Assembly: GCA_964016885.1 (NCBI GenBank)
Contig: OZ024742.1
Span: 351,354,001 to 351,418,000 of the forward strand
Origin: Eledone cirrhosa
Taxonomy: Eukaryota
Direction of reading: 5' to 3'
DNA length: 64,000 nt
Shown here: one piece after another, positions 3,808 to 64,000 of the stretch
Position numbering within the stretch: the first letter of the stretch is position 1
Layout of the letters: every line of letters starts with the position of its first letter
The notes under the pieces: generated by a model
Databases searched by the model: none
Told to the model about the DNA's origin: nothing
Seen by the model: the letters and a program-made list of their open reading frames with translations, nothing else
Made by a program: the position numbers and the translations under genes

Positions 3808-3937
3808 CATTGATATATATATGTATATATATATAATATATATTTATAATGGAAAATTTGAACAGGAACAAAACAGAGAGGCAGTACATCGAATGTTTAA
3901 TAATTTCACGCTCTGGAGAGTGGGGTGGTGGTGGGGA

Positions 3938-3970
3938 ACGACGTTTCGGGCATAAGCCCTTCCTCAGGTG
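3938..3970 (-). ncRNA. Minimal hammerhead ribozyme of the PLE terminal repeat
   Basis: Minus strand reads CTGAGGA AGGGC TTAT GCCC GAAAC GTC, with a loopless stem III as in PLE minimal HHRs. Stem I is weak. Confidence 0.75.
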
Positions 3971-5459
3971 AGAAGTGTGTGGGAAGTGAGTTCAAAGGGT
4001 GTGTAGGGGAGTGGTGGAGAGACATATAGCGAAAAGGGGGTGGGAGGAAACGGTGCGAATGAAATTAAAAATAAAAATAAAAATAAAGCATGATCAAAAT
4101 AAAATGAAATGAAATAAAAATAAATATAAAAGCATGATCAAAATAAACTGAAATTAAAAAGTGGTAAAACAGGTGGTGGAAGGGTGTGGGGTGTGTAGGG
4201 GTGGTGGCACGTGGAGTGGGGAGAGGGAGACGGGGTGTCCGAGCGGGGAGGGCTGAAGGTGGTGTGTGTGTGTAGGTGTACGTGTGTGTGTGTGTGTGTA
4301 TGTGAAAGCAAGGGTTGGAGAAAGAACGGGGTTGCATGTTCAGGAAGAGGTGTGTGTGGGGTGGAGTGTAGGTCGGAGTGTCTGTGCGTGTGTGGATAGA
4401 GGGGTGGGGGGAGAGGAATCCGGAGGCTGAGGGTGTAAATATGTGGTGGAAAGCACGTGTGTTTGAGGTTTAAGCGTGTTGTGGGTGTAGGTGGCGTGTG
4501 GGAGAAAAAAAAAATATTGGGTGTGTGTGTGGGTGAAATATATAGTTGATTCCGTAAGAGGATGAGGTTGAAATATTGGTAAACTCCTATGATGTTAGTA
4601 GATTCCACGGTGGTCAAGTTCCACATACGAGTATTCCATGAAGAGATGGTCGGAAGAGGAGAGATGTGGGGTGCGCGCGCAACAGGAAGTGGTCAAGGCG
4701 GTGGGAGTGCTGTGTGTCTGTTTGTGCTGGGAGGTGGTCAGAGGGCATAGCAGCAGACGGGTGGAGTGGTAATGGGGCGAGGATGGGTAGGTGTGAAAGT
4801 TGGAGTGAGGAGGGTGTGTGTGTGTATTAGTAGAGGTGTTAGTGGGATGAGTGAGTGTGGAGAAAGGGTGTGGGTGGAGCGGGTAGAGAAGGGTGTGGGG
4901 GTGATGGAGGGAATGTGGTGTACTGGTGTGTGTGTAGTTTGATGAAGGGGGTGTTAGTGGGTGTTAGTATACTGGAGGTGGGGAAAGGGTTGAACGGCAG
5001 GTGTGAGTGGGGATTAGTGGTGGTAGGGTGTGTAGAGTTGGTGGTGTACGAGGGTGTGTGGGTACGTGTGCCTGGGGTTGGGGGGTGTTAGTGATGTTAG
5101 TTGCGTGTGGGGTGGGTGGTGTAAGTGGGTGCGTGTGTTCGTGTGCTTGGGGTCAGGGGGTGTTAGTGATGTTAGTTGCGGGATGGTGGGATGGAGGTAT
5201 GGGGGTGAGGGTTAGTTGTGGTAGTGGGGTGTGTGTTTAGTGTGAGCGCGTGTATATATGTGCCGGTGGGTGTGTGCGTGTGATAAGGAGGGGGAGGAGA
5301 AGAAGGGATTGATGTTAGTATGTTAGTTGGGGAAGGGTGGTCGGATGAGGGGTAGGGTGGAGGTGCTAGTATTGTTAGTTGTAGGTTGGGCGGTGAAAAG
5401 GAGGGTTGTGTTAGTGGTGTTAGTGGGGGATATGTGTGGGGGGAGGGGGCTGTCGAAGG

Positions 5460-7225
5460 CTAAAGGAATAAGGGTGGGGAGTTCAGGCCGGGGGGAGTGT
5501 GGGTCAGTAAGATGAAGATGGTTCTTTGTTCGACTCTAAGGAGATTGGCGTGTGTTCCGTGGAATTGGAGTAGGCCACAGACTGTGAGATGGCGTGCGTA
5601 ATGTCCAGGGGCAACAAAGTGGCGGGCGATGGGGGAACTACCACCGAGACGAATATCCCAGAGGTGCTCAGTGAATCGGTCCGCCAGGCGGCGCCCCGTC
5701 TGTCCGATATAAGTCGGGTGAGAGCGGTGTGGACGAGAGAGAGGGTAACCTCTGCGGATGAAATGGCTGACTAGGGAAAGGGCCTGGGACTCGAAGTCAG
5801 CATCTCGGCTACAGAGGCGGCGGATCCTGAGGAGTTGGGAGTAGGGAATAGAGTGTTTAGTGTGTGGGGGTGGGAAGAGGGGAAGTCGAGGTAAGAGTGG
5901 GAGTCAATTGGTTTGAAGAAGGCGGAGGTGACGATGGATTGGTGGGAAGGGTCGAAGGCGACGGAGATGTCTAAGAAATGGACGTGGGTGGTGGAGATAG
6001 AGGTGGTGAAGTGGAGGGAGGCGTGGGAGGTGCAGAAGACGGAGAAAAAGGAGTCGAGCTGTTCTCGGGTGAGGATCCTGGCTCCGATACATCGTCAATG
6101 TAACGACCGTACAGTTCGGGCGTGGGGCCGGTGTACTGGGCAAAGATTTGGGCCTCAACATGGCCAACAAAAAAGGTTGGCATAGTTCGGGCCCATTCAT
6201 GTACCCATGGCTATACCCGTGACCAGTTGGTAAAACTCACCCGAGAAGGAGAAACAGTTGAGGGTGAGGACCAGCTCGGCGAGGCGAAGGAGGGTGGAGG
6301 TGGAGGGAATGGGGGAGGGGCGAAGGTCGAGGTAGAGTTTGAGGGCGCGTAGGCCGTCGACGTGGGGGATGACGGTATAGGGGGACTTGATGTCTAGGGT
6401 GAAGAGGAAGGGCTGTGGGCCGGGTGGGTAGGTGAAGGAGTCGAAAAGGCGCAGGGCGTGGTTGGTGTCGGAGATGTGGGAGGGGAGGGTGGTGACAAGG
6501 GGGGCGAGGATGGAGTCAAGAAAGGCGGAGATGAGTTCGGTGGGGCAGTTGCAAGCGGAGACGATGGGGCGGCCGGGGTTGTCGGGTTTGCGGAGTTTGG
6601 GGAGGAAGTAGATGGTGGGGGTGCGGACGATGAGGTGGGAAGCAGTGGGGGGGGGGGGGGGGGTAGGAGGAGGAGGCGACAACGTCTTGGTTGGTGGAGG
6701 AAACTTGTTGTTGGTAGAGAGGTGTGGGATCGGAGTGTAGAGGGCGGTAGAAGAGGGGTTTACAGAGCTGCCTGAGAGCTTCGGCCGTGTAGAGGTCTGC
6801 GCGCCACACCACCACGGCGCCTCCCTTGTCCGCCGGTTTGATGACGATGTCATCTCGGCTACGGAGGGATCGGAGAGCGAGGAGTTCACCCCGTGAGATA
6901 TTGTACCGTTTGGAACGGTGGCGGAAGTCGAAACGATTTACTGCGCTACTGCTGGCATCGACGAACGCGTCCAGGGTGCTAAATTGCCCTGGTGCCGGCG
7001 TCCAAGAAGATGGTCCTCGACCCAGGTGGGGAAACGGGTCTGGGGCGTCCGGAGCCGGTGGCGGTTGGCCGAAATGTGGCTGTAGCTTCGTGCGTCGCAC
7101 GAATCGCTCGACTTCCATTCGGGTGCCAAACTCGTCGCTGTGCGGAGTGTGGGGTATGAAGCGAAGGCTTCTACTAAGGAGTGAGCGCTCAGGTGCGGAG
7201 AGGGGGAGGTCAGGGTGTATCTGAG
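5460..7225 (-). pseudogene. PLE reverse transcriptase + GIY-YIG endonuclease, frameshifted
   Basis: Across frames: IKPADKGGAVVVW, PGRPIVSAC, FTLDIKS, GIAMGT..GPNYANLF, RYIDD, SIPYSQLLRIRRLCS, RRGYP, then YIGQTGRRLADRFTEHL...PPGLN and a stop at ~5460. Confidence 0.92.
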
Positions 7226-8419
7226 ACAAGTTATTCATATGTGACCTGTTTACGACCGGAATTCGTTAGCAACGAAAACCTGTTTCATGTGATTCAATTA
7301 TTTCTATTGTTTCAACGTTTTAGATCAAATATATGATAACATTCGATATATCAAAAGATAATAGAAATGCTACATACATAAATTATACAATTCAGTGAAG
7401 TAAACTGTGATCGGGATGATAGGATTAAATAACAAAAACATATAATCGATAAATTTGATTGTAATAGGTTTGGTATGTTAGTAAATAGATATATATATAC
7501 ACACATACACGCCAAATGTACATACACATATGCTCAATTTTATTATCTCTGGAAAAGTTTCAAAGAACAGAAGATTATCGGTGATCACTCATAATTCATG
7601 TTTTATTTTGTATATGGTGGATCAGAAAATAAAACTCTATCTTCGCTGACCGAATGAATGGTAAACGAGTTTAGCGTCGTACTTTATAATCTGGACAGCG
7701 CCGGAATGTCTTAAATTGAGACGCGATTTTACAAGTGTACTAGGATTCACGAAGTACACTTATTGAAGGCTTAAACGACCTTCTACATTGATATTCTAAC
7801 CCTAAAATTATGTATTCTTCCATAACTTAGGGAAGGGAAATTATTTCTGCCTAGTACTGAGGTGGACTTATATGTAGGGAAATAGGAAGATAGTATTGCC
7901 CCAATACAACTGATTTCTACATTTAATTTCCAGTTCCATCGCAACGCGTCAGCAATTCTGTCTTGCCTTCAATTCCAATTTATTATCTTTCTATTTCAAA
8001 TATGTTTTTGGAAAATCTTTGCTACCTATATGCAAATACGAGTAACAGCGAGGGACACACATACAAACGATATAATAACTCAAATTATCTTCTGCCTTCA
8101 AACTAAATATTAATGTGGTCAACTTTCTCTCACGAGTCTGATGTCTGTCGAATAAAAATAAGTAATTCTGCTTGGAGGAAAATTTATATATATGCTGTTA
8201 ATTTAAATATTTTTGTTTACGATCTGAAAATAATTAATTGTTATCACATTTGTAGAGCATATTAATCTGTTCTATCATTTAGACAGCTCTCAACTGTATG
8301 CAGGGATTCAATAAGTACAAGATCCCGAAGCATTGTATTAGTGAATCTAACATAAGGAAGATACAGAGAAAACTTAATTCTAGATAATATTTAGAAGAAA
8401 GATCTTGAATAAACCGAAC

Positions 8420-9236: not shown

Positions 9237-9283
<47 letters not shown>

Positions 9284-9570
9284 AAATAACGAAACGAAAT
9301 TAAATTTCGTTTCGCTTCTAACTCACTTTTGTATGACTGACGCTTAAATAATTAAGTTAAAAGTGTACATCTACATATGTATACGGAAATATTAGTATGC
9401 ATAAAAATACACACATGTATACATATGTACATGTACTGAGTTTTTCACTGGACACTTTACTGTGAGTGTCCAGCTAGTCTGTATGTAAACAAACAGACAA
9501 ACCGGGTTTTAGAGTCATACGGGTTTTCAAGGAAACACATTTCCTCTATTCTCCAGAGAGCCAGACAGGA

Positions 9571-9613
9571 ATATTGGACTAGTTTCGATGTTATTACATC
9601 TCATCAGCAATAT
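9571..9613 (-). ncRNA. Type I hammerhead ribozyme
   Basis: Reverse complement of 10093-10135. Confidence 0.9.
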
Positions 9614-10092
9614 AAACCCATCTTCCGGCTTCTCTAGAGAATCGTAAAAGCACATATCGTTATATGCTTTTTCTATGAAAATTAGTAGTGGGCAGACTAA
9701 TTTGCATAGAACGTGAGTCATTGTACAAACCCGGTTTGTCTGTTTGTTTACATACAGACTAGCTGGACACTCACAGTAAAGTGTCCAGGGAAAAACTCAG
9801 TACATGTACATATGTATACATGTGTGTATTTATATGCATACTAATATTTCCGTATACATATGTAGATGTACACTTTTAACTTAATTGTTTAAGCGTCAGT
9901 CATACAAAAGTGAGTTAGAAGCGAAACGAAATTTAATTTCGTTTCGGTATTTGTTTTTATCGTTTCCGCTGAACCGGTGCGTACAATGACTCACGTTCTA
10001 TGCAAATTAGTCTGCCCACTACTAATTTTCATAGAAAAAGCATATAACGATATGTGCTTTTACGATTCTCTAGAGAAGCCGGAAGATGGGTG

Positions 10093-10135
10093 ATATTGCT
10101 GATGAGATGTAATAACATCGAAACTAGTCCAATAT
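10093..10135 (+). ncRNA. Type I hammerhead ribozyme, canonical core, GUC site
   Basis: ATATTG CTGATGA GATGT AATA ACATC GAAAC TA GTC CAATAT. Stem I can extend via TCTCTAGAGAAGCCGGA/TCTGGCTCTCTGGAGA. Confidence 0.92.
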
Positions 10136-10232
10136 TCCTGTCTGGCTCTCTGGAGAATAGAGGAAATGTGTTTCCTTGAAAACCCGTATGACTCTAAAAC
10201 CCGGTTTGTCTGTTTGTTTACATACAGACCAG

Positions 10233-10323
<91 letters not shown>

Positions 10324-10347: not shown

Positions 10348-10545
10348 GGGGCGGTGGATTGGCAGTATCGGTAGAGGGTCGTACGTCATGCTTTCCAGCA
10401 TAGTTACGTCCCTTTACGATCTGAGTTCAAATCCCGCCGAGGTTGACTTTGCCTTTCATCCTTACGGGGTCGATAAAATAAAGTACCAGTAATGCACTGG
10501 GTAATTGCTGGCCTTGTGCCTAAAGTAGGAACAATTATTATTATT
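10348..10545 (+). mobile_element. tRNA-derived SINE, family A, full length
   Basis: GGGGCGGTGGATTGGCAGTATCGG (A box), GAGTTCAAATCCC (B box) and (ATT)n tail. Confidence 0.9.
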
Positions 10546-10743
10546 GTGGATTGGCAGTATCGTTAGAGGGTTTGACGCCATGCTTTCCAGCATAGTTACG
10601 TCCCTTTACGATCAGAGTTCAAATCCCGCCGAGGTTGACTTTGCCTTTCATCCTTACGGGGTCGATAAAATAAAGTACCAGTAATGCACTGGGTAATTGC
10701 TGGCCTTGTGCCTAAAGTAGGAACAATTATTATTATTATTATT
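10546..10743 (+). mobile_element. tRNA-derived SINE, family A, second tandem copy
   Basis: Near-identical to 10348-10545 and starts in that copy's (ATT)n tail. Confidence 0.9.
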
Positions 10744-45490: not shown

Positions 45491-48400
45491 CATAGAATAT
45501 TCGAAAATATTCTGTATGTTTATAATAAACATTTTGAAGACCTAATCGCTATAGAATAGAATACGTCACGTATTACAATTAGATTCTCGATAAAAGCAAG
45601 GGAAGTAATCTACGCGTTTCATTCTTGTTAGAAATCATCAGGACTACATATCCAGTGCTTTTATCGAGAATGACACAGCTAGAGACTTATAGAATACTTA
45701 GCTGTGTACAGGAACTGGTTTGAAAGAGCGGTTGCCGGTCCGGCAGAAATTAGAAATTGGAATAAATGCTCTGAAATAGCGATATATATGTGAATATAGA
45801 CATAGAATATTCGAAAATATTCTGTATGTTTATAATAAACATTTTGAAGACCTAATCGCTATAGAATAGAATACGTCACGTATTACAATTAGATTCTCGA
45901 TAAAAGCAAGGGAAGTAATCTACGCGTTTCATTCTTGTTAGAAATCATCAGGACTACATATCCAGTGCTTTTATCGAGAATGACACAGCTAGAGACTTAT
46001 AGAATACTTAGCTGTGTACAGGAACTGGTTTGAAAGAGCGGTTGCCGGTCCGGCAGAAATTAGAAATTGGAATAAATGCTCTGAAATAGCGATATATATG
46101 TGAATATAGACATAGAATATTCGAAAATATTCTGTATGTTTATAATAAACATTTTGAAGACCTAATCGCTATAGAATAGAATACGTCACGTATTACAATT
46201 AGATTCTCGATAAAAGCAAGGGAAGTAATCTACGCGTTTCATTCTTGTTAGAAATCATCAGGACTACATATCCAGTGCTTTTATCGAGAATGACACAGCT
46301 AGAGACTTATAGAATACTTAGCTGTGTACAGGAACTGGTTTGAAAGAGCGGTTGCCGGTCCGGCAGAAATTAGAAATTGGAATAAATGCTCTGAAATAGC
46401 GATATATATGTGAATATAGACATAGAATATTCGAAAATATTCTGTATGTTTATAATAAACATTTTGAAGACCTAATCGCTATAGAATAGAATACGTCACG
46501 TATTACAATTAGATTCTCGATAAAAGCAAGGGAAGTAATCTACGCGTTTCATTCTTGTTAGAAATCATCAGGACTACATATCCAGTGCTTTTATCGAGAA
46601 TGACACAGCTAGAGACTTATAGAATACTTAGCTGTGTACAGGAACTGGTTTGAAAGAGCGGTTGCCGGTCCGGCAGAAATTAGAAATTGGAATAAATGCT
46701 CTGAAATAGCGATATATATGTGAATATAGACATAGAATATTCGAAAATATTCTGTATGTTTATAATAAACATTTTGAAGACCTAATCGCTATAGAATAGA
46801 ATACGTCACGTATTACAATTAGATTCTCGATAAAAGCAAGGGAAGTAATCTACGCGTTTCATTCTTGTTAGAAATCATCAGGACTACATATCCAGTGCTT
46901 TTATCGAGAATGACACAGCTAGAGACTTATAGAATACTTAGCTGTGTACAGGAACTGGTTTGAAAGAGCGGTTGCCGGTCCGGCAGAAATTAGAAATTGG
47001 AATAAATGCTCTGAAATAGCGATATATATGTGAATATAGACATAGAATATTCGAAAATATTCTGTATGTTTATAATAAACATTTTGAAGACCTAATCGCT
47101 ATAGAATAGAATACGTCACGTATTACAATTAGATTCTCGATAAAAGCAAGGGAAGTAATCTACGCGTTTCATTCTTGTTAGAAATCATCAGGACTACATA
47201 TCCAGTGCTTTTATCGAGAATGACACAGCTAGAGACTTATAGAATACTTAGCTGTGTACAGGAACTGGTTTGAAAGAGCGGTTGCCGGTCCGGCAGAAAT
47301 TAGAAATTGGAATAAATGCTCTGAAATAGCGATATATATGTGAATATAGACATAGAATATTCGAAAATATTCTGTATGTTTATAATAAACATTTTGAAGA
47401 CCTAATCGCTATAGAATAGAATACGTCACGTATTACAATTAGATTCTCGATAAAAGCAAGGGAAGTAATCTACGCGTTTCATTCTTGTTAGAAATCATCA
47501 GGACTACATATCCAGTGCTTTTATCGAGAATGACACAGCTAGAGACTTATAGAATACTTAGCTGTGTACAGGAACTGGTTTGAAAGAGCGGTTGCCGGTC
47601 CGGCAGAAATTAGAAATTGGAATAAATGCTCTGAAATAGCGATATATATGTGAATATAGACATAGAATATTCGAAAATATTCTGTATGTTTATAATAAAC
47701 ATTTTGAAGACCTAATCGCTATAGAATAGAATACGTCACGTATTACAATTAGATTCTCGATAAAAGCAAGGGAAGTAATCTACGCGTTTCATTCTTGTTA
47801 GAAATCATCAGGACTACATATCCAGTGCTTTTATCGAGAATGACACAGCTAGAGACTTATAGAATACTTAGCTGTGTACAGGAACTGGTTTGAAAGAGCG
47901 GTTGCCGGTCCGGCAGAAATTAGAAATTGGAATAAATGCTCTGAAATAGCGATATATATGTGAATATAGACATAGAATATTCGAAAATATTCTGTATGTT
48001 TATAATAAACATTTTGAAGACCTAATCGCTATAGAATAGAATACGTCACGTATTACAATTAGATTCTCGATAAAAGCAAGGGAAGTAATCTACGCGTTTC
48101 ATTCTTGTTAGAAATCATCAGGACTACATATCCAGTGCTTTTATCGAGAATGACACAGCTAGAGACTTATAGAATACTTAGCTGTGTACAGGAACTGGTT
48201 TGAAAGAGCGGTTGCCGGTCCGGCAGAAATTAGAAATTGGAATAAATGCTCTGAAATAGCGATATATATGTGAATATAGACATAGAATATTCGAAAATAT
48301 TCTGTATGTTTATAATAAACATTTTGAAGACCTAATCGCTATAGAATAGAATACGTCACGTATTACAATTAGATTCTCGATAAAAGCAAGGGAAGTAATC

Positions 48401-49388
48401 TACGCGTTTCATTCTTGTTAGAAATCATCAGGACTACATATCCAGTGCTTTTATCGAGAATGACACAGCTAGAGACTTATAGAATACTTAGCTGTGTACA
48501 GGAACTGGTTTGAAAGAGCGGTTGCCGGTCCGGCAGAAATTAGAAATTGGAATAAATGCTCTGAAATAGCGATATATATGTGAATATAGACATAGAATAT
48601 TCGAAAATATTCTGTATGTTTATAATAAACATTTTGAAGACCTAATCGCTATAGAATAGAATACGTCACGTATTACAATTAGATTCTCGATAAAAGCAAG
48701 GGAAGTAATCTACGCGTTTCATTCTTGTTAGAAATCATCAGGACTACATATCCAGTGCTTTTATCGAGAATGACACAGCTAGAGACTTATAGAATACTTA
48801 GCTGTGTACAGGAACTGGTTTGAAAGAGCGGTTGCCGGTCCGGCAGAAATTAGAAATTGGGATAAATGCTCTGAAATAGCGATATATATGTGAATATAGA
48901 CATAGAATATTCGAAAATATTCTGTATGTTTATAATAAACATTTTGAAGACCTAATCGCTATAGAATAGAATACGTCACGTATTACAATTAGATTCTCGA
49001 TAAAAGCAAGGGAAGTAATCTACGCGTTTCATTCTTGTTAGAAATCATCAGGACTACATATCCAGTGCTTTTATCGAGAATGACACAGCTAGAGACTTAT
49101 AGAATACTTAGCTGTGTACAGGAACTGGTTTGAAAGAGCGGTTGCCGGTCCGGCAGAAATTAGAAATTGGAATAAATGCTCTGAAATAGCGATATATATG
49201 TGAATATAGACATAGAATATTCGAAAATATTCTGTATGTTTATAATAAACATTTTGAAGACCTAATCGCTATAGAATAGAATACGTCACGTATTACAATT
49301 AGATTCTCGATAAAAGCAAGGGAAGTAATCTACGCGTTTCATTCTTGTTAGAAATCATCAGGACTACATATCCAGTGCTTTTATCGAG
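45491..49388 (-). ncRNA. 13 tandem type I hammerhead ribozymes (minus strand, 310-bp period)
   Basis: Each unit contains GTAATCTACGCGTTTCATTCTTGTTAGAAATCATCAGGACTAC, the reverse complement of the HHR core. Confidence 0.9.
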
Positions 49389-49392
49389 TGTC

Positions 49393-49481
49393 ATTCTCGA
49401 TAAAAGCACTGGATATGTAGTCCTGATGATTTCTAACAAGAATGAAACGCGTAGATTACTTCCCTTGCTTTTATCGAGAAT
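49393..49481 (+). ncRNA. Type I hammerhead ribozyme (first of 12 plus-strand copies, 310-bp period)
   Basis: ATTCTCGATAAAAGCA ctggatat GTAGTC CTGATGA T TTCT AACA AGAA T GAAAC GC GTA GATTAC ttccct TGCTTTTATCGAGAAT. Predicted cleavage is after 49453. Confidence 0.92.
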
Positions 49482-52400
49482 CTAATTGTAATACGTGACG
49501 TATTCTATTCTATAGCGATTAGGTCTTCAAAATGTTTATTATAAACATACAGAATATTTTCGAATATTCTATGTCTATATTCACATATATATCGCTATTT
49601 CAGAGCATTTATTCCAATTTCTAATTTCTGCCGGACCGGCAACCGCTCTTTCAAACCAGTTCCTGTACACAGCTAAGTATTCTATAAGTCTCTAGCTGTG
49701 TCATTCTCGATAAAAGCACTGGATATGTAGTCCTGATGATTTCTAACAAGAATGAAACGCGTAGATTACTTCCCTTGCTTTTATCGAGAATCTAATTGTA
49801 ATACGTGACGTATTCTATTCTATAGCGATTAGGTCTTCAAAATGTTTATTATAAACATACAGAATATTTTCGAATATTCTATGTCTATATTCACATATAT
49901 ATCGCTATTTCAGAGCATTTATTCCAATTTCTAATTTCTGCCGGACCGGCAACCGCTCTTTCAAACCAGTTCCTGTACACAGCTAAGTATTCTATAAGTC
50001 TCTAGCTGTGTCATTCTCGATAAAAGCACTGGATATGTAGTCCTGATGATTTCTAACAAGAATGAAACGCGTAGATTACTTCCCTTGCTTTTATCGAGAA
50101 TCTAATTGTAATACGTGACGTATTCTATTCTATAGCGATTAGGTCTTCAAAATGTTTATTATAAACATACAGAATATTTTCGAATATTCTATGTCTATAT
50201 TCACATATATATCGCTATTTCAGAGCATTTATTCCAATTTCTAATTTCTGCCGGACCGGCAACCGCTCTTTCAAACCAGTTCCTGTACACAGCTAAGTAT
50301 TCTATAAGTCTCTAGCTGTGTCATTCTCGATAAAAGCACTGGATATGTAGTCCTGATGATTTCTAACAAGAATGAAACGCGTAGATTACTTCCCTTGCTT
50401 TTATCGAGAATCTAATTGTAATACGTGACGTATTCTATTCTATAGCGATTAGGTCTTCAAAATGTTTATTATAAACATACAGAATATTTTCGAATATTCT
50501 ATGTCTATATTCACATATATATCGCTATTTCAGAGCATTTATTCCAATTTCTAATTTCTGCCGGACCGGCAACCGCTCTTTCAAACCAGTTCCTGTACAC
50601 AGCTAAGTATTCTATAAGTCTCTAGCTGTGTCATTCTCGATAAAAGCACTGGATATGTAGTCCTGATGATTTCTAACAAGAATGAAACGCGTAGATTACT
50701 TCCCTTGCTTTTATCGAGAATCTAATTGTAATACGTGACGTATTCTATTCTATAGCGATTAGGTCTTCAAAATGTTTATTATAAACATACAGAATATTTT
50801 CGAATATTCTATGTCTATATTCACATATATATCGCTATTTCAGAGCATTTATTCCAATTTCTAATTTCTGCCGGACCGGCAACCGCTCTTTCAAACCAGT
50901 TCCTGTACACAGCTAAGTATTCTATAAGTCTCTAGCTGTGTCATTCTCGATAAAAGCACTGGATATGTAGTCCTGATGATTTCTAACAAGAATGAAACGC
51001 GTAGATTACTTCCCTTGCTTTTATCGAGAATCTAATTGTAATACGTGACGTATTCTATTCTATAGCGATTAGGTCTTCAAAATGTTTATTATAAACATAC
51101 AGAATATTTTCGAATATTCTATGTCTATATTCACATATATATCGCTATTTCAGAGCATTTATTCCAATTTCTAATTTCTGCCGGACCGGCAACCGCTCTT
51201 TCAAACCAGTTCCTGTACACAGCTAAGTATTCTATAAGTCTCTAGCTGTGTCATTCTCGATAAAAGCACTGGATATGTAGTCCTGATGATTTCTAACAAG
51301 AATGAAACGCGTAGATTACTTCCCTTGCTTTTATCGAGAATCTAATTGTAATACGTGACGTATTCTATTCTATAGCGATTAGGTCTTCAAAATGTTTATT
51401 ATAAACATACAGAATATTTTCGAATATTCTATGTCTATATTCACATATATATCGCTATTTCAGAGCATTTATTCCAATTTCTAATTTCTGCCGGACCGGC
51501 AACCGCTCTTTCAAACCAGTTCCTGTACACAGCTAAGTATTCTATAAGTCTCTAGCTGTGTCATTCTCGATAAAAGCACTGGATATGTAGTCCTGATGAT
51601 TTCTAACAAGAATGAAACGCGTAGATTACTTCCCTTGCTTTTATCGAGAATCTAATTGTAATACGTGACGTATTCTATTCTATAGCGATTAGGTCTTCAA
51701 AATGTTTATTATAAACATACAGAATATTTTCGAATATTCTATGTCTATATTCACATATATATCGCTATTTCAGAGCATTTATTCCAATTTCTAATTTCTG
51801 CCGGACCGGCAACCGCTCTTTCAAACCAGTTCCTGTACACAGCTAAGTATTCTATAAGTCTCTAGCTGTGTCATTCTCGATAAAAGCACTGGATATGTAG
51901 TCCTGATGATTTCTAACAAGAATGAAACGCGTAGATTACTTCCCTTGCTTTTATCGAGAATCTAATTGTAATACGTGACGTATTCTATTCTATAGCGATT
52001 AGGTCTTCAAAATGTTTATTATAAACATACAGAATATTTTCGAATATTCTATGTCTATATTCACATATATATCGCTATTTCAGAGCATTTATTCCAATTT
52101 CTAATTTCTGCCGGACCGGCAACCGCTCTTTCAAACCAGTTCCTGTACACAGCTAAGTATTCTATAAGTCTCTAGCTGTGTCATTCTCGATAAAAGCACT
52201 GGATATGTAGTCCTGATGATTTCTAACAAGAATGAAACGCGTAGATTACTTCCCTTGCTTTTATCGAGAATCTAATTGTAATACGTGACGTATTCTATTC
52301 TATAGCGATTAGGTCTTCAAAATGTTTATTATAAACATACAGAATATTTTCGAATATTCTATGTCTATATTCACATATATATCGCTATTTCAGAGCATTT

Positions 52401-53036
52401 ATTCCAATTTCTAATTTCTGCCGGACCGGCAACCGCTCTTTCAAACCAGTTCCTGTACACAGCTAAGTATTCTATAAGTCTCTAGCTGTGTCATTCTCGA
52501 TAAAAGCACTGGATATGTAGTCCTGATGATTTCTAACAAGAATGAAACGCGTAGATTACTTCCCTTGCTTTTATCGAGAATCTAATTGTAATACGTGACG
52601 TATTCTATTCTATAGCGATTAGGTCTTCAAAATGTTTATTATAAACATACAGAATATTTTCGAATATTCTATGTCTATATTCACATATATATCGCTATTT
52701 CAGAGCATTTATTCCAATTTCTAATTTCTGCCGGACCGGCAACCGCTCTTTCAAACCAGTTCCTGTACACAGCTAAGTATTCTATAAGTCTCTAGCTGTG
52801 TCATTCTCGATAAAAGCACTGGATATGTAGTCCTGATGATTTCTAACAAGAATGAAACGCGTAGATTACTTCCCTTGCTTTTATCGAGAATCTAATTGTA
52901 ATACGTGACGTATTCTATTCTATAGCGATTAGGTCTTCAAAATGTTTATTATAAACATACAGAATATTTTCGAATATTCTATGTCTATATTCACATATAT
53001 ATCGCTATTTCAGAGCATTTATTCCAATTTCTTATG

Positions 53037-53128
<92 letters not shown>

Positions 53129-57793: not shown

Positions 57794-59725
57794 AATGAAT
57801 AATAACAGGTAGACATCATAAAAAGGTAATTTATTCCGTGTGCTTACAAATGTTTCCACGGTGGTACTACAGCCTAGTTATGCTAAGTGCAAATTTACAA
57901 CTATTTGCAGAACTCAAATATCCAATGCTGTGACCACTGTATCCTCAGAGCAGAATGGTAAAATGTACAATGTAAATACCCTTAAGTGGGGTTGTTGGGG
58001 AAGATAGAGTAGAAAAGGAAGAGAGAAAAGTAGGGGAGAGGGAGAGAGAGAGAAATATATGCAGGGGTTGGAGAAGTAGGAGAGAGTGGTTTGTAGATAT
58101 CTTAATCAAAATGTTATGGTAGGGCTTTATTATGCTGGTTACTTTTGGAGAGATGCGTTGATAGTTAAGGTCTGAATTATTTATTGCCCCAGAGGGCAGG
58201 TTCATATATGTAGAGAGGGAGGTAGGCCAAAGGCGAGAGAGAGAGAGGGAGTGTAATGGATGTAGACAGAGAGGTAGAGAGGGGACAGACGAAGTTTATG
58301 TGGTGAGTGAACTTTGGGTTTGTAGTAGTAATCTGCGAATTGCACAGAGTTACCATTTATAGTGATAAGCAGTCTATTGTATTGTAGTGTGGGGGAAGAG
58401 AAGGTGGTTAGCTAGAAAGCGATGTTATAGTTACGGGTTCGAATGTTAAGTTATTTTATAGTGAGAGAATTTAGCTTTTAGCTTTTAGTTTGTGGTTGCA
58501 GTATAATGGTCGTTCAATTCTATCAGAAAGTAGTTTGTTTTTGGATTTTAATATGTAAAAGAGTTCAAGGTTACATAACCTGCAGTACTTTAATCCACTC
58601 CGATATGCACTTGCGCTGAAAATATATCCCATTTTAAGGTGAACTGTTGGTTGCGTTCACGGAGTTGCCAGGTCTTGTTGGCGAGCGTGGTCACAAAACG
58701 GTGATTAGGATGTTTGATTGAGAATCGATAACGGTACCAGCGAGATTTAAACGAGGTGGTGGTAGATCCGATATAATACCATTTCTGGTCGTTCGATTCA
58801 ACCGTGCATTGGTAAACAATGTTGGACTTTAGGCATTCATTCTTCAATGGACATCTTTCAGGTAGATGGCAGTTACATTCTTTGTTGTGGGTAGCGGGTA
58901 TACCATGGACAGGTTGTGATAGCAGTGCAGGTGGATTGTGTAATACCCGTCTCCCATTTAGTGGTTGGGAGGCAGATATTACGTTCTGCCCATCTATTAC
59001 TAAAATGTTTTGTTTTGTAGAGTTGTTTAATTGCCTTAAGGTAAGTTTTTTTTAATGTATGCTTCAAGGTTTGGTGCCGTGGAGTATGATAGTCTAATAG
59101 TTTTAGATTTCAGAATGTTGCTGTATTTATGGGAACTAGGGAAATGTTTGTTGATTAACTTAAAGAATGAAAGAGATAGTTTTGTAGTAATCGAGGCATT
59201 AAAAATAGGATTGTACCAGTTATACTTTCTACAACGTGATTTATTTGGTGGTGATTTTCTATTATTAGTATGTCTGGTAGTATAGTGTGTGTGTGCTTGT
59301 ATTTTAGTCCCCCGGTTACGTATTCCTTGATTTCGTGTAGAGCTATGTGTGTTATGGACATTCCTATCAATGTATTCTATTGTATCCCGGTGGTCGGCAT
59401 TCCTTAATGCATTATTGTAGTATTCAGCGTGTTCACTAAAAATATCAGAGTTAGACGATAGACGAGAGATTCTAAGAGAAATACTCCGGGGAACCGATTT
59501 GATCATGGAGAGTGGGTGGTTAGAGTTAAAGTTAATATACGTAATGTTCTCATTCATCTTGTGGAAGGGTAGTATCTGTCCGGTATTTAAATTAAGAGTT
59601 ACGTCCAGAAAGTTTACTACTTTAAGATTGTATTTGTATGTTATTTTTAGACCCAGTTCACTAAAAGATTTTCTAATATTTTTCCGTAGCCTTTCAAGAT
59701 TTTGGTTATTCAAGTTATTAACTAA
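57790..59725 (-). mobile_element. Naiad-like PLE, 5' truncated (RT C-terminal half, GIY-YIG, UTR, HHR)
   Basis: VNFLDVTLNL, SNHP, WYNP, IRLSYS..PN, CNC...CPL..ECL..NIVY.C..YYIGST..FKSRW, CRLC. Frameshifts are present. Confidence 0.9.
57841..57952 (-). ncRNA. Type I hammerhead ribozyme with ~85-nt branched stem II
   Basis: TGCT CTGAGGA TACAGTGGT..ACAGC...GCTGT..ACCACCGTG GAAAC ATTT GTA AGCA. Confidence 0.78.
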
Positions 59726-59741
59726 ATATATATATATATAT

Positions 59742-61858
59742 AAAATCAGGTGGCGAGCATTCCACTTTGATAAATCTAATATAAATGAAAATGTCTCGGA
59801 CTTAAACAAAGTTTTCAAATCCAAAAGAAATCCACCCCCCAACAAACTTTTATCTGACTTTGAAAACGATATAATTTCTATCATACAAGGAGTCAAATTT
59901 AAGAGAAACTTCAAAGACCAGGAATATCTGAAAGGCATTAGGGATAATATTGAGAACTTGGAGAAAACTGAGAAGATCTTGGTAAAATCTGACAAGACCA
60001 ACAACCTCTATGGAGTGCAGAAAGACATGTATAATGGCCTCATACTAAAAGAACTGAGGAAAAAGTACAAGGTAACAGATAAGGCCGAGCTACAGAAAAT
60101 GAATGTTGAGGCATCTTGTATAATGCACGAGTTGGAAATCGAGAACAGAACACAACCTTTCGTGCCCAGGAAACCGAAGATCAATATGAAAGATCATAAG
60201 AGAAATTTCGAGAATGACTTGCCAGTCAGATTGATTGCACCATCAAAATCGGACCTGGGTAAACTAAGCAAAAACATTCTTGACAGGGTGATACAGCAAA
60301 TTAAAAACTTGGGTTGTTTACCTAACCTGAGCTTGTGGAAGGGAACTGGTGAGGTTGTTGAGTGGTTTAAGCAAATTAAATATAACAATAATAATAAGTT
60401 TATTCAACTTGATATTGCTAACTATTATTCTTCCATTACCCCTAATCTACTAAATAAGGCACTAAATTACGCATTCAAACATACAGACCTAACTAGCAAT
60501 GAAATGCACATTATATTATCGGCTAGGAAAACATTGATAGAATTTAATGACCAACTATGGACCCGAGCAGATAGAGATAACAATTTTGACATTACTATGG
60601 GATCATCCGACTCAGCTCAGGTAACTGACCTTGTGGGCTTATTTTTAATCAATTCGCTGCATAGGAAAATACCTGGTACTACCGGAGGTTTATATAGAGA
60701 TGACATGCTTTTACTTATTGATAATAATAACTCTGAACTAAATAGAAAAAGAAAACAAATTACACAATTGTTTAATCACTTTAATCTAAAAATAGAAATT
60801 GAGAATAGCCATAGAATAGTCAACTTCCTAGATATAACATTAAATCTCAACACATGTCTTCACTATCCATTTCACAAATTGAATGAAAACTTAAACTATG
60901 TCAGCTTTAACTCTAACCACCCCAAATCCGTTAAAAACACTATAGTAAACTCTGTTCAATCACGTATCTCTAGAATCTCATCTAATAAAAAGATTTTCGA
61001 CGAAAAAGCCCATTATTACAATGAAGCGTTAGCTAGAGCAGGATATAGTGATAAAATTATGTACATAGATAATGATAAACAAATTAAACAAAATAACAAC
61101 TGTTTTAATTATGGCCACAACCTTAACAACTATAATAGAAAGCATTACAATAATTCCAAAAGCCATAAAAGAAATAGAACTAGGAATATAATATGGTTTG
61201 CCCCCCCCCCCCCCTTCTCACTAAACATTAAAACCCACATTGCTAAACAATTTTTTAAAGCTCTCGATAATCGCTTCCCGAGAACACATAGGTATCACTC
61301 AATTTTCAATAGACATACTATAAAATAACCTACTCATCCACCAAAAATTTAGCGCAAAATATTAATAGAATAAATAACAGGAACTTAAAACCTAGCGATA
61401 ATAGCATAAATAATATACAAGTTAACAAATGTAACTGTAGAGATAGATCTAAATGTCCGTTAAATAACAACTGCTTAGTTAAAAATATAATATACAACTG
61501 TAATGTTAAAACGGACGTTAATTCTTTTAACTACGTTGGTTCTACATCGACGGAATTTAAACTTCGCTATAACAACCACAAGAATTCTTTCACAGATCCA
61601 TCCCAAAAATCTTCAACAGCACTATCAGGCGTACTCTGGCAACTTAGGCATGATAACGTTAGATATTCGACGACTTGGAATATAGTTTCAAGGGGGATTC
61701 CTTTTAATTCATCCTCTGAGACATGTGACCTCTGTGCGGAGGAGATATTCTTTATACTAAAATCTAAAAATTCCCTTAATCTACGGACAAATTTATTCAG
61801 TTGCTGCAGACATAGATTGAACTCAACGTTTAAATATAAATTTAAATTTAAAATGTAA
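59742..61858 (+). pseudogene. Naiad-like PLE RT + C-terminal GIY-YIG endonuclease, near-intact (5' truncated, one frameshift at ~61325)
   Basis: KIRWRAF, SDKTNN, KDHK, PVRLI.P, FIQLDIANYY, ITMGS, GLYRDD, VNFLD, SNHP. After the shift: CNC..CPL..CL..IIY..YVGST..FKLRYNNH..CDLC..E..LN..CRH, stop at 61858. Confidence 0.93.
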
Positions 61859-63176
61859 TTATGTTTGTTTTGATTTGATTTGTAATTATTTATGAAACTA
61901 GCCGATAAATCTTTCGATTTCTTCTTTTTATTAAAACATTCTTTTTAAACATTCTTCATGAATAATTAAACTACCCTAAAAGCTGATGCTCCAAATATAT
62001 CGAATTAAATTTTAAACTATATAAACTTCTATATTATATATAAGAACATATGTCGACCAAATGGGTATCCTAAACTTTTGGAATGATTTCTGCTAGACAG
62101 GATTTGGTAAACAATTTTTGTTTTATCTGTTTCGACTCTGATGCTTATGATGATCTTGGCAATATATTGTCAATTAACTTTGAAAGGCTGATCTCTGTGT
62201 TTTATTTTTATTTGTATTATTTTTTAATATTATTTTTTAATATTTTTTAATATTTTGTAATATTTTTTATTTTTAATATTAAATGTTTTAGTTTTTCTGT
62301 TTATTTATTTATTTATTTTCTTGTCTCTGATGTTTTTATTTTTATTTTTATTTTTATTTTTATTTTTATTAATATATTGAAATCTGTTCTCTATTTCTGC
62401 TTGATCGACAATCAGCTAGAATAAAGACAAGAATAGTATTGTTAAAATTAATATAGACTCTATATATATATGTGTATATATACACACATATATGTATACT
62501 TGAATTTTTATAGCACAATGAGAATGTTTTCGTGTGAATTGGGAGTTTGTTTATAATTATGATATAAACATATGAATTTTTAAAAACTAGACATAAGATC
62601 ATTACTTTTCACACATTATAGATACATGTCTCATTCATGAATACTGGTACTTACATTATAATGCCTGTTTTATACGAACTAATATTTTCTACGGATAAAA
62701 CATAGCGGTTTTAAATTCTGCATCGTTTGTGTCTGGTTATGTTTCATTTTTTCTTTTTCATTTTCTCTTTTTTTCTCTCTATATAACGGCTATTTTCTCT
62801 CTTAACTACATACATCTCTCTTTACATTAATACTAGAGCTAAACAAATAAATAAATAAATGAATAAATGTATCAACCGATACTCAACTTCCTAATTTCTC
62901 TATCTATCTCTATCTATCTCTTTCTTTTTTTTTTTCCTCTCTCTATATATATTTCTCTCTGTTTCTTTACATGGAGTTCTTCTCTTTATCTATCTTTCTA
63001 TATCCCTCTATTTAGTCACATGCATTTCTTCTTTTTCTTCGTTTCTCTTTCTTTCTCTCTTTATCTCTTTCTTTTTACAACTGTCCTCAATATTTTTTAC
63101 TATCAAATCAACCTCCCAAATGCAAGGTGATTGAAAGGTATGTCGTATCTATTTATTTATAAGACTGTTTATATTG

Positions 63177-63242
63177 TATTTTGTCTGAAGATGGCATAAC
63201 ATATTGTTAATATGATATCCCTGAAATATATATAACGAAATA
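63177..63242 (+). ncRNA. Type I hammerhead ribozyme (PLE 3' end)
   Basis: TATTTTGT CTGAAGA [stem II] GAAA TATATA TA ACGAAATA. Confidence 0.65.
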
Positions 63243-63370
63243 AATATGGTTTTATAAATATAGTTTCCATTTATTTAATATCATAAATATACTCCAAATA
63301 CGTGTTGAGTGCTTTTATATCAGTTATAAATATTTACTCGTTGTTAGCCCAACTATTTAAATATAACTTT

Positions 63371-63493
<123 letters not shown>

Positions 63494-63881: not shown

Positions 63882-64000
63882 TTACGGACTGAGTTCAAAT
63901 CCCGCCGAGGTCAACTTTGCCTTTCATCCTTATGGGGTCGATAAAATAAAGTACCAGTAATACACTGGATAATTGCTGGCATTGTGCCAAAAGTAGAACA
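63882..64000 (+). mobile_element. tRNA-derived SINE, family A, 5' truncated, running off the window
   Basis: CTGAGTTCAAATCCCGCCGAGGTCAACTTTGCCTTTCATCC... Confidence 0.85.

Follow-up and report, generated by a model that had tools for sequence, protein, structure and literature searches.

A 310-bp non-coding repeat with a type I hammerhead, found as a tandem array in the cephalopod Eledone cirrhosa, belongs to a retrozyme family that is real and young and bears a clear PLE insertion footprint. The retrozyme is present at an estimated 1,400 or so places in the genome, mostly as back-to-back arrays in (TA)n, and its 310-nt sequence has probably been copied into these sites from a predicted circular RNA by a PLE of the Hydra clade acting in trans. 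The array lies in the window, by which we mean the whole 64,000-nt stretch of contig OZ024742.1 that was analysed, and in an earlier note it had been tied to a neighbouring PLE through the likeness of the two hammerheads. That likeness is by itself a weak and ordinary clue, and the insertion footprint is the stronger evidence.

The array and its insertion footprint

The array (Table 1) is made up of near-identical units, with one substitution across the 23 full units compared, whose size falls inside the 170-400 nt range of non-LTR retrozymes; every unit has a type I hammerhead (stems assigned by hand), and the array is without any listed open frame of 120 aa. The hammerhead core pattern is matched 31 times in the window, against 0.13 matches expected, and 25 of these are array copies at 310-bp spacing (13 minus, 12 plus), namely the motif singled out in the earlier note, which we place at 49423-49448, and 24 further copies. 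The array hammerhead is absent among the 150 of 179 Rfam matches listed. As a circle, the unit has a predicted fold of -67.8 kcal/mol (z -4.6).

Table 1. Features of the retrozyme array and of the PLEs in the window
Feature	Position	Strand	Remarks
Retrozyme left arm	45490..49388	-	12.6 units of 310 bp; short-end class, its 3' end in (TA)n at unit position 121
Retrozyme right arm	49388..53032	+	11.8 units of 310 bp; long-end class, its 3' end in (TA)n at unit position 169
Left flank of array	45261..45494	.	(TA)n-type
Right flank of array	53033..53128	.	(TA)n-type
Single unit	49454..49763	+	cut site to cut site; predicted circular RNA
Unit positions 130-165	49583..49618	+	two recurrent insertion ends and intervening tail; putative RT start sites; short end 130-139 at AUAUAUAU tract, long end about 165 (unit positions)
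Type I hammerhead of array	49417..49459	+	from sequence; GUA cut site predicted after 49453
Stem I of array hammerhead	49417-49422 paired with 49454-49459	+
Core of array hammerhead	49423-49429	+
Stem II of array hammerhead	49430-49443	+	U·U at base
famB, broken Hydra-clade PLE	16342..24347	.	inverted arrangement; long end left, short end right
Other DNA inside famB element	17290-19000		about 1.7 kb
famB frame, N-terminal piece	20669..21139	-	RWR and DKT
famB GIY-YIG endonuclease, C-terminal end	21128..21358	+	CxxC, CxH and stop codon
famB hammerhead compared in the earlier note	24280..24332	+	motif 24287-24310; stem III 4 bp, 8-nt loop
Inverted famB hammerhead	16429..16481	-	motif 16451-16474; one C>T in stem II; followed by a 68-nt tail (-)
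Two-armed short remnant, famB subfamily	33876..34055	.	hammerhead 33903-33926 (-)
famC, second Hydra-clade family	59421..63372	+	frameshifted here, intact elsewhere; rival helper
famC hammerhead	63185		palindromic stem III
famP, canonical-type PLE	3850..7265	-	DKG, C-terminal endonuclease, hammerhead 3967; rival helper

Across the genome (3.0 Gb), the exact 38-nt hammerhead has 4,200 matches, and the end patterns on the forward strand number 704 for the long end and 604 for the short end, with 90 for an older subfamily; the figure of about 1,400 insertions is the forward count doubled, reverse counts being inflated by overlapping matches. Individual loci were mapped on one contig (C1) and in the window. 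In a first set, from which four loci were left out (a duplicate, a continuation, a cut one and a gapped one), each of the 61 two-armed insertions pairs a short end, located within unit positions 110-145 (mostly 125-139), with a long one within 150-175 (mostly 165); the opposite, plus-then-minus orientation was seen in none of these two-armed loci, and a further 13 insertions are one-armed. A second set of 20 loci comprises 16 two-armed insertions, again all pairing a short with a long end, two one-armed insertions and two loci cut by the fetch. In total, therefore, the rule is kept by 77 of the 77 two-armed insertions in which both ends were seen (23 chosen as pairs and 54 not; 13 chosen on the hammerhead alone), their arms pointing outwards into (TA)n and a tail of 26-35 nt separating the two end classes, while 15 insertions are one-armed. 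PLEs are described as leaving an inverted truncated copy and a one-sided tail of 30-40 bp (PMC8557442), and the retrozyme has both traits, the inverted 5'-truncated copy and the short tail at one end only. The earlier view of the array as a retrozyme-type repeat with (TA)n targets is thus borne out by the dispersed ends in (TA)n and by the PLE footprint.

The 5' breakpoints are scattered over the unit, only 2 of 131 falling at the hammerhead site where a uniform spread would give 5.1, and the arms are 3.9 units long in the median and 27 at most, the longer arm carrying the long end in 32 of 58 insertions and the short end in 26. Fixed variants agree between the two arms of 44 out of 49 insertions (32 of 37 when those with any fixed variant are counted, 12 of the 49 having none), and 29 haplotypes occur among 82 insertions; the variants shared between arms, taken with this number of haplotypes, point to repeated single-unit bottlenecks. 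Fixed variants sit at unit positions 2, 20, 158, 259, 262, 276 and 295. On the RNA strand, a first count gave nine A>G against one T>C (p 0.007), and a count with more loci and a stricter rule gave seven against three (p 0.13), a lean towards A>G that is a possible trace of A-to-I editing. Foreign sequence is found between or within the arms in L067 (1999-2270, 272 nt), L280 (492-751) and L285 (about 1980-2090), which suggests template jumps; the piece in L280 is presumably LINE-like.

Copying and template

One short and one long end per insertion can be read as a PLE tail produced by two internal RT start sites, and the copying that we propose would run as follows. Array transcripts would be cut by dimer-type hammerheads and ligated to circles; the two strands of (TA)n would each be nicked by a PLE endonuclease; reverse transcription would start on one RNA from two RT sites, which probably belong to a dimer, at unit positions about 130-139 and 165; the RT would roll round the circle for several turns, with one start site for each arm; and the two truncated copies would finally be joined at their 5' ends. 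In published work, the Poseidon PLE protein nicks and extends both strands in vitro, and its RT starts at two internal sites whose spacing equals the tail, a dimer being predicted (Frangieh et al. 2024, PMC11167929), while hammerhead-made circles have been proposed as templates for copies of more than unit length (Cervera and de la Peña 2014, PMC4209133). For the array hammerhead itself, a predicted dimer co-fold reaches -22.3 kcal/mol against 2 x -8.1 kcal/mol for the monomers. In its most specific form, in which a Hydra dimer copies one 310-nt circle from one fixed site per subunit into opposite cDNAs and famB is both ancestor and helper, the proposal is unlikely to be right in all its parts at once; if it were true, it would name an RT for a metazoan retrozyme and would show, in vivo and across a whole genome, how the inverted repeats and tails of PLEs come about.

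Of the alternatives, the one that survives best concerns the template and is compatible with the same Hydra helper: the PLE machinery may have worked on an uncut linear transcript of several units, or the second arm may have been copied from the DNA of the first, which we regard as possible though somewhat improbable. Both arms of L180 switch haplotype after two copies, which is easier to explain with a DNA template, or one of several units, than with a single circle, and in L173 a single variant is mirrored between the arms; moreover, the U·U at the base of stem II would be expected to weaken that stem, and for Poseidon in vitro the main substrate is uncut RNA and hammerhead cutting is dispensable (PMC11167929). 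Against this, variant positions are mirrored between arms in only 8 cases and confined to one arm in 64 (some of the latter being alignment artefacts at hairpin junctions), L146 is not mirrored, many private haplotypes are fixed in every unit, and the short-end arm is the longer one in those 26 of 58 insertions, which a simple fold-back from the long end cannot give.

The neighbouring element and the choice of helper

The PLE whose hammerhead had been compared with that of the array (famB) was taken in the earlier note for Naiad-like, an assignment that does not stand: by its motifs and domain order it is Hydra-type and not a Naiad. The element is broken in the window, and its N-terminal piece is 92% identical over 169 aa to an intact frame at locus L260; a 758-codon open frame is present in eight of eight famB loci chosen for long frames (L260 and seven more), with RWR at 83, DKT at 161, YRDD at 392 and CxCx5C at 611, followed towards the C-terminus by YIG at 647, CxxC at 711 and CxH at 739. 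The RT comes first and the GIY-YIG domain is C-terminal, with no pair of cysteines in its core, the N-terminal GIY-YIG of Naiads being absent; DKT is exact, as opposed to the DKA of Naiads, and RWR stands where Hydra has RWK. At L260 a hammerhead lies on both sides of the intact frame, and the family has a canonical hammerhead and (TA)n targets. Craig et al. (2021, PMC8557442) describe Naiads as having an N-terminal endonuclease, DKA and no canonical hammerhead, together with (TA)n targets, inverted copies and 30-40-bp tails, and characterise those of cephalopods as old remnants; their Hydra clade has a C-terminal endonuclease, RWK, DKT, CxCx5C, CxxC, CxH, hammerheads and (TA)n targets, its definition adding a GIY-YIG core without the cysteine pair, and an element named Hydra-1_Obim appears in their supplement. 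Like the clade so described, famB, famC and famF encode RT and then GIY-YIG in a single frame, with RW(K/R), CxCx5C, CxxC and CxH, and possess a hammerhead and (TA)n targets, and famB and famC also have DKT; unlike it, famB and famC read RWR instead of RWK, and all three exceed 3 kb by virtue of long repeat-rich 3' regions and have tails of 68-160 nt. A homologue search returned 692 relatives, of which those listed are 38-53% identical and without informative names; in Pfam, GIY-YIG is weak or absent and no match names a clade. The 3' region of famB (21358-23800 in the window) is made up of 2-3.5 kb of TA/TG microsatellite-like sequence that moves with the element, which would thereby spread its own target type.

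The helper is almost certainly some PLE and likely a member of the Hydra clade; the famB group is its leading candidate, a choice that we make tentatively, with famC and famF as the alternatives. Nearest-neighbour identities in the four PLE families of the window are 0.996-1.000 (12 best matches each), and famB, famC and famF are young and have intact frames. The (TA)n preference shared with the neighbour, which had been offered as a link, is real in that both the retrozyme and famB lie in (TA)n, but such targeting is common to at least four young PLE families, and since all the PLE families compared end in (TA)n, the target does not discriminate between helpers. The short-plus-long rule is kept by famB in 9 of 10 inverted pairs. 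A long end is present in 14 of 26 famC and 12 of 19 famF copies and in 0 of 11 endonuclease-bearing famP copies, and for famB in one of six intact copies and in 26 of 53 ends overall; the share among the longer arms of the retrozyme (32 of 58) is like that of famC and famF and unlike that of famP. Tails measure 68 nt in famB, 90 nt in famC and 160 nt in famF, against 26-35 nt in the retrozyme, which is thus nearer to the roughly 40 nt of famP (one observation) and to the canonical 30-40 nt than to the Hydra families.

This last comparison is part of the case for a helper outside the Hydra clade, such as famP, with its DKG motif, or a family beyond those sampled, which we think rather unlikely. 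The family is young (nearest-neighbour identity 0.996) and ends in (TA)n, its short end lies about 90 nt past the hammerhead site with a tail of 40 nt seen once, and this geometry is nearer to the 130-139/165 of the retrozyme than is the 21/89 of famB. The long end, however, is found in none of the 11 famP copies, whereas 32 of the 58 longer arms of the retrozyme carry it (Fisher p 0.0005); famP has no likeness to the retrozyme at the hammerhead or the short end, and its longest open frame among 150 matches is 699 aa, most being under 300. Candidate chimeras were also considered as markers of the helper. At L077 (618-1291), a famC-related 3' end (91% to window 63137-63396) abuts an arm of the older retrozyme subfamily with no TA run between them, an ambiguous case that a separate insertion could also explain; L175 and L307 were set aside because TA runs separate the retrozyme from its neighbours, and L064 because an assembly gap does so.

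As for the hammerheads, the motifs of the array and at 24287, 16451 and 33903 can each be folded by hand into a type I hammerhead that has U10.1·U11.1 and a GUA site, which confirms the GUA site and the U·U at the base of stem II that were reported earlier. The description of the cores as nearly identical holds for 28 columns spanning core and stem II, 26 of which are identical between array and famB and 11 of which belong to the universal core CUGANGA/GAAA, and it fails elsewhere, stems I and III and the remainder of the unit being unrelated. For stem I the array has GUAGUC/GAUUAC and famB AGAUUC/GAAUCU, and stem III is a palindromic ACGCGU of the dimer type in the array as against ACAG, an 8-nt loop and CUGU in famB; when the unit is compared with a whole intact famB copy, only TA-rich noise matches beyond the 28 columns, outside which we found no homology to any PLE compared.

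Comparison with nine families nevertheless places famB first: the whole-hammerhead match to the retrozyme scores 50 for famB, 40 for the famB subfamily and 33 for the next, unrelated family, and famB is also the closest in stem II. Of the earlier interpretation, this much is supported: famB is young, has intact frames and gives the best whole-hammerhead score among the nine. The 3' half of the hammerhead fits famF better than famB (18 vs 12). The likeness of the short-end region to famB has an uncorrected p of about 0.04 among eight families; mimicry of the famB short end was dropped as a candidate, its significance being lost once the eight families are allowed for, and in the older retrozyme subfamily the likeness disappears. 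Pattern searches for sequences intermediate between retrozyme and famB found none, the single match that combined a famB-type stem III with the retrozyme stem I being the retrozyme motif plus one extra base. Hammerheads that share the retrozyme stem III gave 26 matches against 12 in a control and are mostly retrozyme variants; for 11 of the 26, no link to a PLE frame appeared within about 150-200 nt of flank. Separately, hammerhead-like motifs with the same ACGCGU stem III and other stems I and II occur at L205, L206, L216, L213 and L215. Descent of the retrozyme from the famB group is plausible from these comparisons, and such common ancestry may have left its trace in the stem II likeness, which is no proof of it.

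How specific the U·U is was gauged with a structural hammerhead scan of 1.46 Mb of this genome (overlapping loci included), in which six clusters have at least two distinct copies. Four of the six show U·U, namely the retrozyme, famB, a second non-coding family at 39245 and a family in L276; famC has it in some copies and A-U in others, and the retrozyme itself has A-U at the base of stem II in 19 of 89 insertions. The axolotl retrozyme HHR_Amex2 also has U·U at the base of helix II (PMC7229834), and because the signature is present in other hammerhead families here and in axolotl, hammerheads unrelated to Naiads do in part share it, which the earlier note had itself said would tell against its interpretation. 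The pattern CTGATGATTTC-N3-8-GAATGAAAC has 36,129 genome matches, of which the 22 listed are all famB-group ends or retrozyme copies.

These results bear on the further claim that a Naiad terminus was the source or the model of the retrozyme, which would use the RT and endonuclease of Naiads. Naiad tails of 30-40 bp are close to the 26-35 nt seen here, and Naiads too have (TA)n targets and inverted copies (PMC8557442), yet the neighbour is refuted as a Naiad by its C-terminal endonuclease, DKT and canonical hammerhead, and Naiads are described as having no canonical hammerheads and as old remnants in cephalopods (PMC8557442), so that we find the claim very improbable. Nor do the hammerheads establish the direct link of helper and parasite that had been drawn from them: U·U occurs elsewhere, (TA)n is a common target, the tails differ and no intermediate was found. 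Least credible of all is a satellite that arose by unequal crossing-over and DNA-level inversions around a chance or fossil hammerhead, to which the almost identical units of the window array would be suited, as would the local amplification after the landing of a PLE end that a recent preprint favours (10.64898/2026.07.22.740005), and which is contradicted by the dispersal of about 1,400 insertions, whose two ends are fixed and lie in (TA)n, by the strict pairing of short and long ends and by the foreign sequence captured at some central junctions.

Known systems and other elements in the window

The link between retrozymes and PLEs has already been proposed in print, and the footprint described here makes it testable. 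PLEs have been named as a strong candidate for the mobiliser of metazoan retrozymes (Cervera and de la Peña 2020, PMC7229834), and vertebrate retrozymes have been argued to be non-autonomous derivatives of PLE terminal repeats, 24 of 57 Xenopus families matching 22 Repbase elements of which 21 are PLEs (Li, Clavereau and Pollet, bioRxiv 10.64898/2026.07.22.740005). That preprint shares the helper idea with us; its evidence consists of co-occurrence and terminal-repeat homology, mostly in vertebrates, whereas here it is an insertion footprint, with homology almost absent (10.64898/2026.07.22.740005). Like the non-LTR retrozymes (PMC7229834), the family has a non-coding tandem unit of 170-400 nt with one type I hammerhead, a short palindromic stem III and a self-paired predicted circle; unlike them, it forms arrays of two outward arms whose ends in (TA)n, one short and one long, are fixed, and the words "inverted" and "target site" occur 0 times in the main text of that paper (PMC7229834). 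Circles and cleavage were demonstrated for those retrozymes (PMC7229834), and the present family is known from DNA and predicted folds. A literature search by titles and abstract openings, with subscription journals mostly outside it, found no inverted two-armed retrozyme arrays with paired ends.

Among PLEs, Poseidon PAc of Anolis (PMC11167929) resembles the family in the two adjacent internal RT starts downstream of the hammerhead that define the tail, in the nicking and extension of both strands and in the predicted dimer; it differs in being an autonomous element studied in vitro, and strict short/long pairing and the use of a non-coding repeat are not reported for it in the part of that account drawn on here (PMC11167929). 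The non-autonomous elements of Chlamys, for example MRC1, are likewise non-coding PLE passengers with multicopy head-to-tail insertions; their 3' end resembles the helper and hammerheads are mostly absent, whereas the retrozyme has a hammerhead and no clear homology to a helper (PMC8557442).

The enzyme that mobilises retrozymes has so far been a matter of proposal, resting on co-occurrence and terminal homology, and the origin of the inverted copies and one-sided tails of PLEs is only partly worked out. The repeated unit of the roughly 1,400 young insertions preserves, for each arm, where copying started, how far it ran and which template was used, and with its short RNA and several intact candidates for the helper protein the family lends itself to direct testing in vitro.

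Several other elements of the window are worth recording. The non-coding element at 9280-10235 has two arms between TA-type flanks, a G-C stem II hammerhead, and short and long ends 38 nt apart, and is probably another PLE passenger; weak Rfam HH9 matches were found only at 9554-9626 and 10081-10152 among the 150 of 179 matches listed. The second non-coding U·U hammerhead family (38930-39420, core 39245, minus strand) is attached there to the 3' region of the Hydra family famF and occurs twice in L260. A further remnant of a Hydra-type RT and endonuclease is situated at 58300-59420 (minus strand), directly upstream of famC. Finally, a dispersed repeat of ~190 bp, which we take to be SINE-like, is present at 1571-1751, 2109-2300, 10354-10737 (in tandem), 40810-40998 and 63882-64000.
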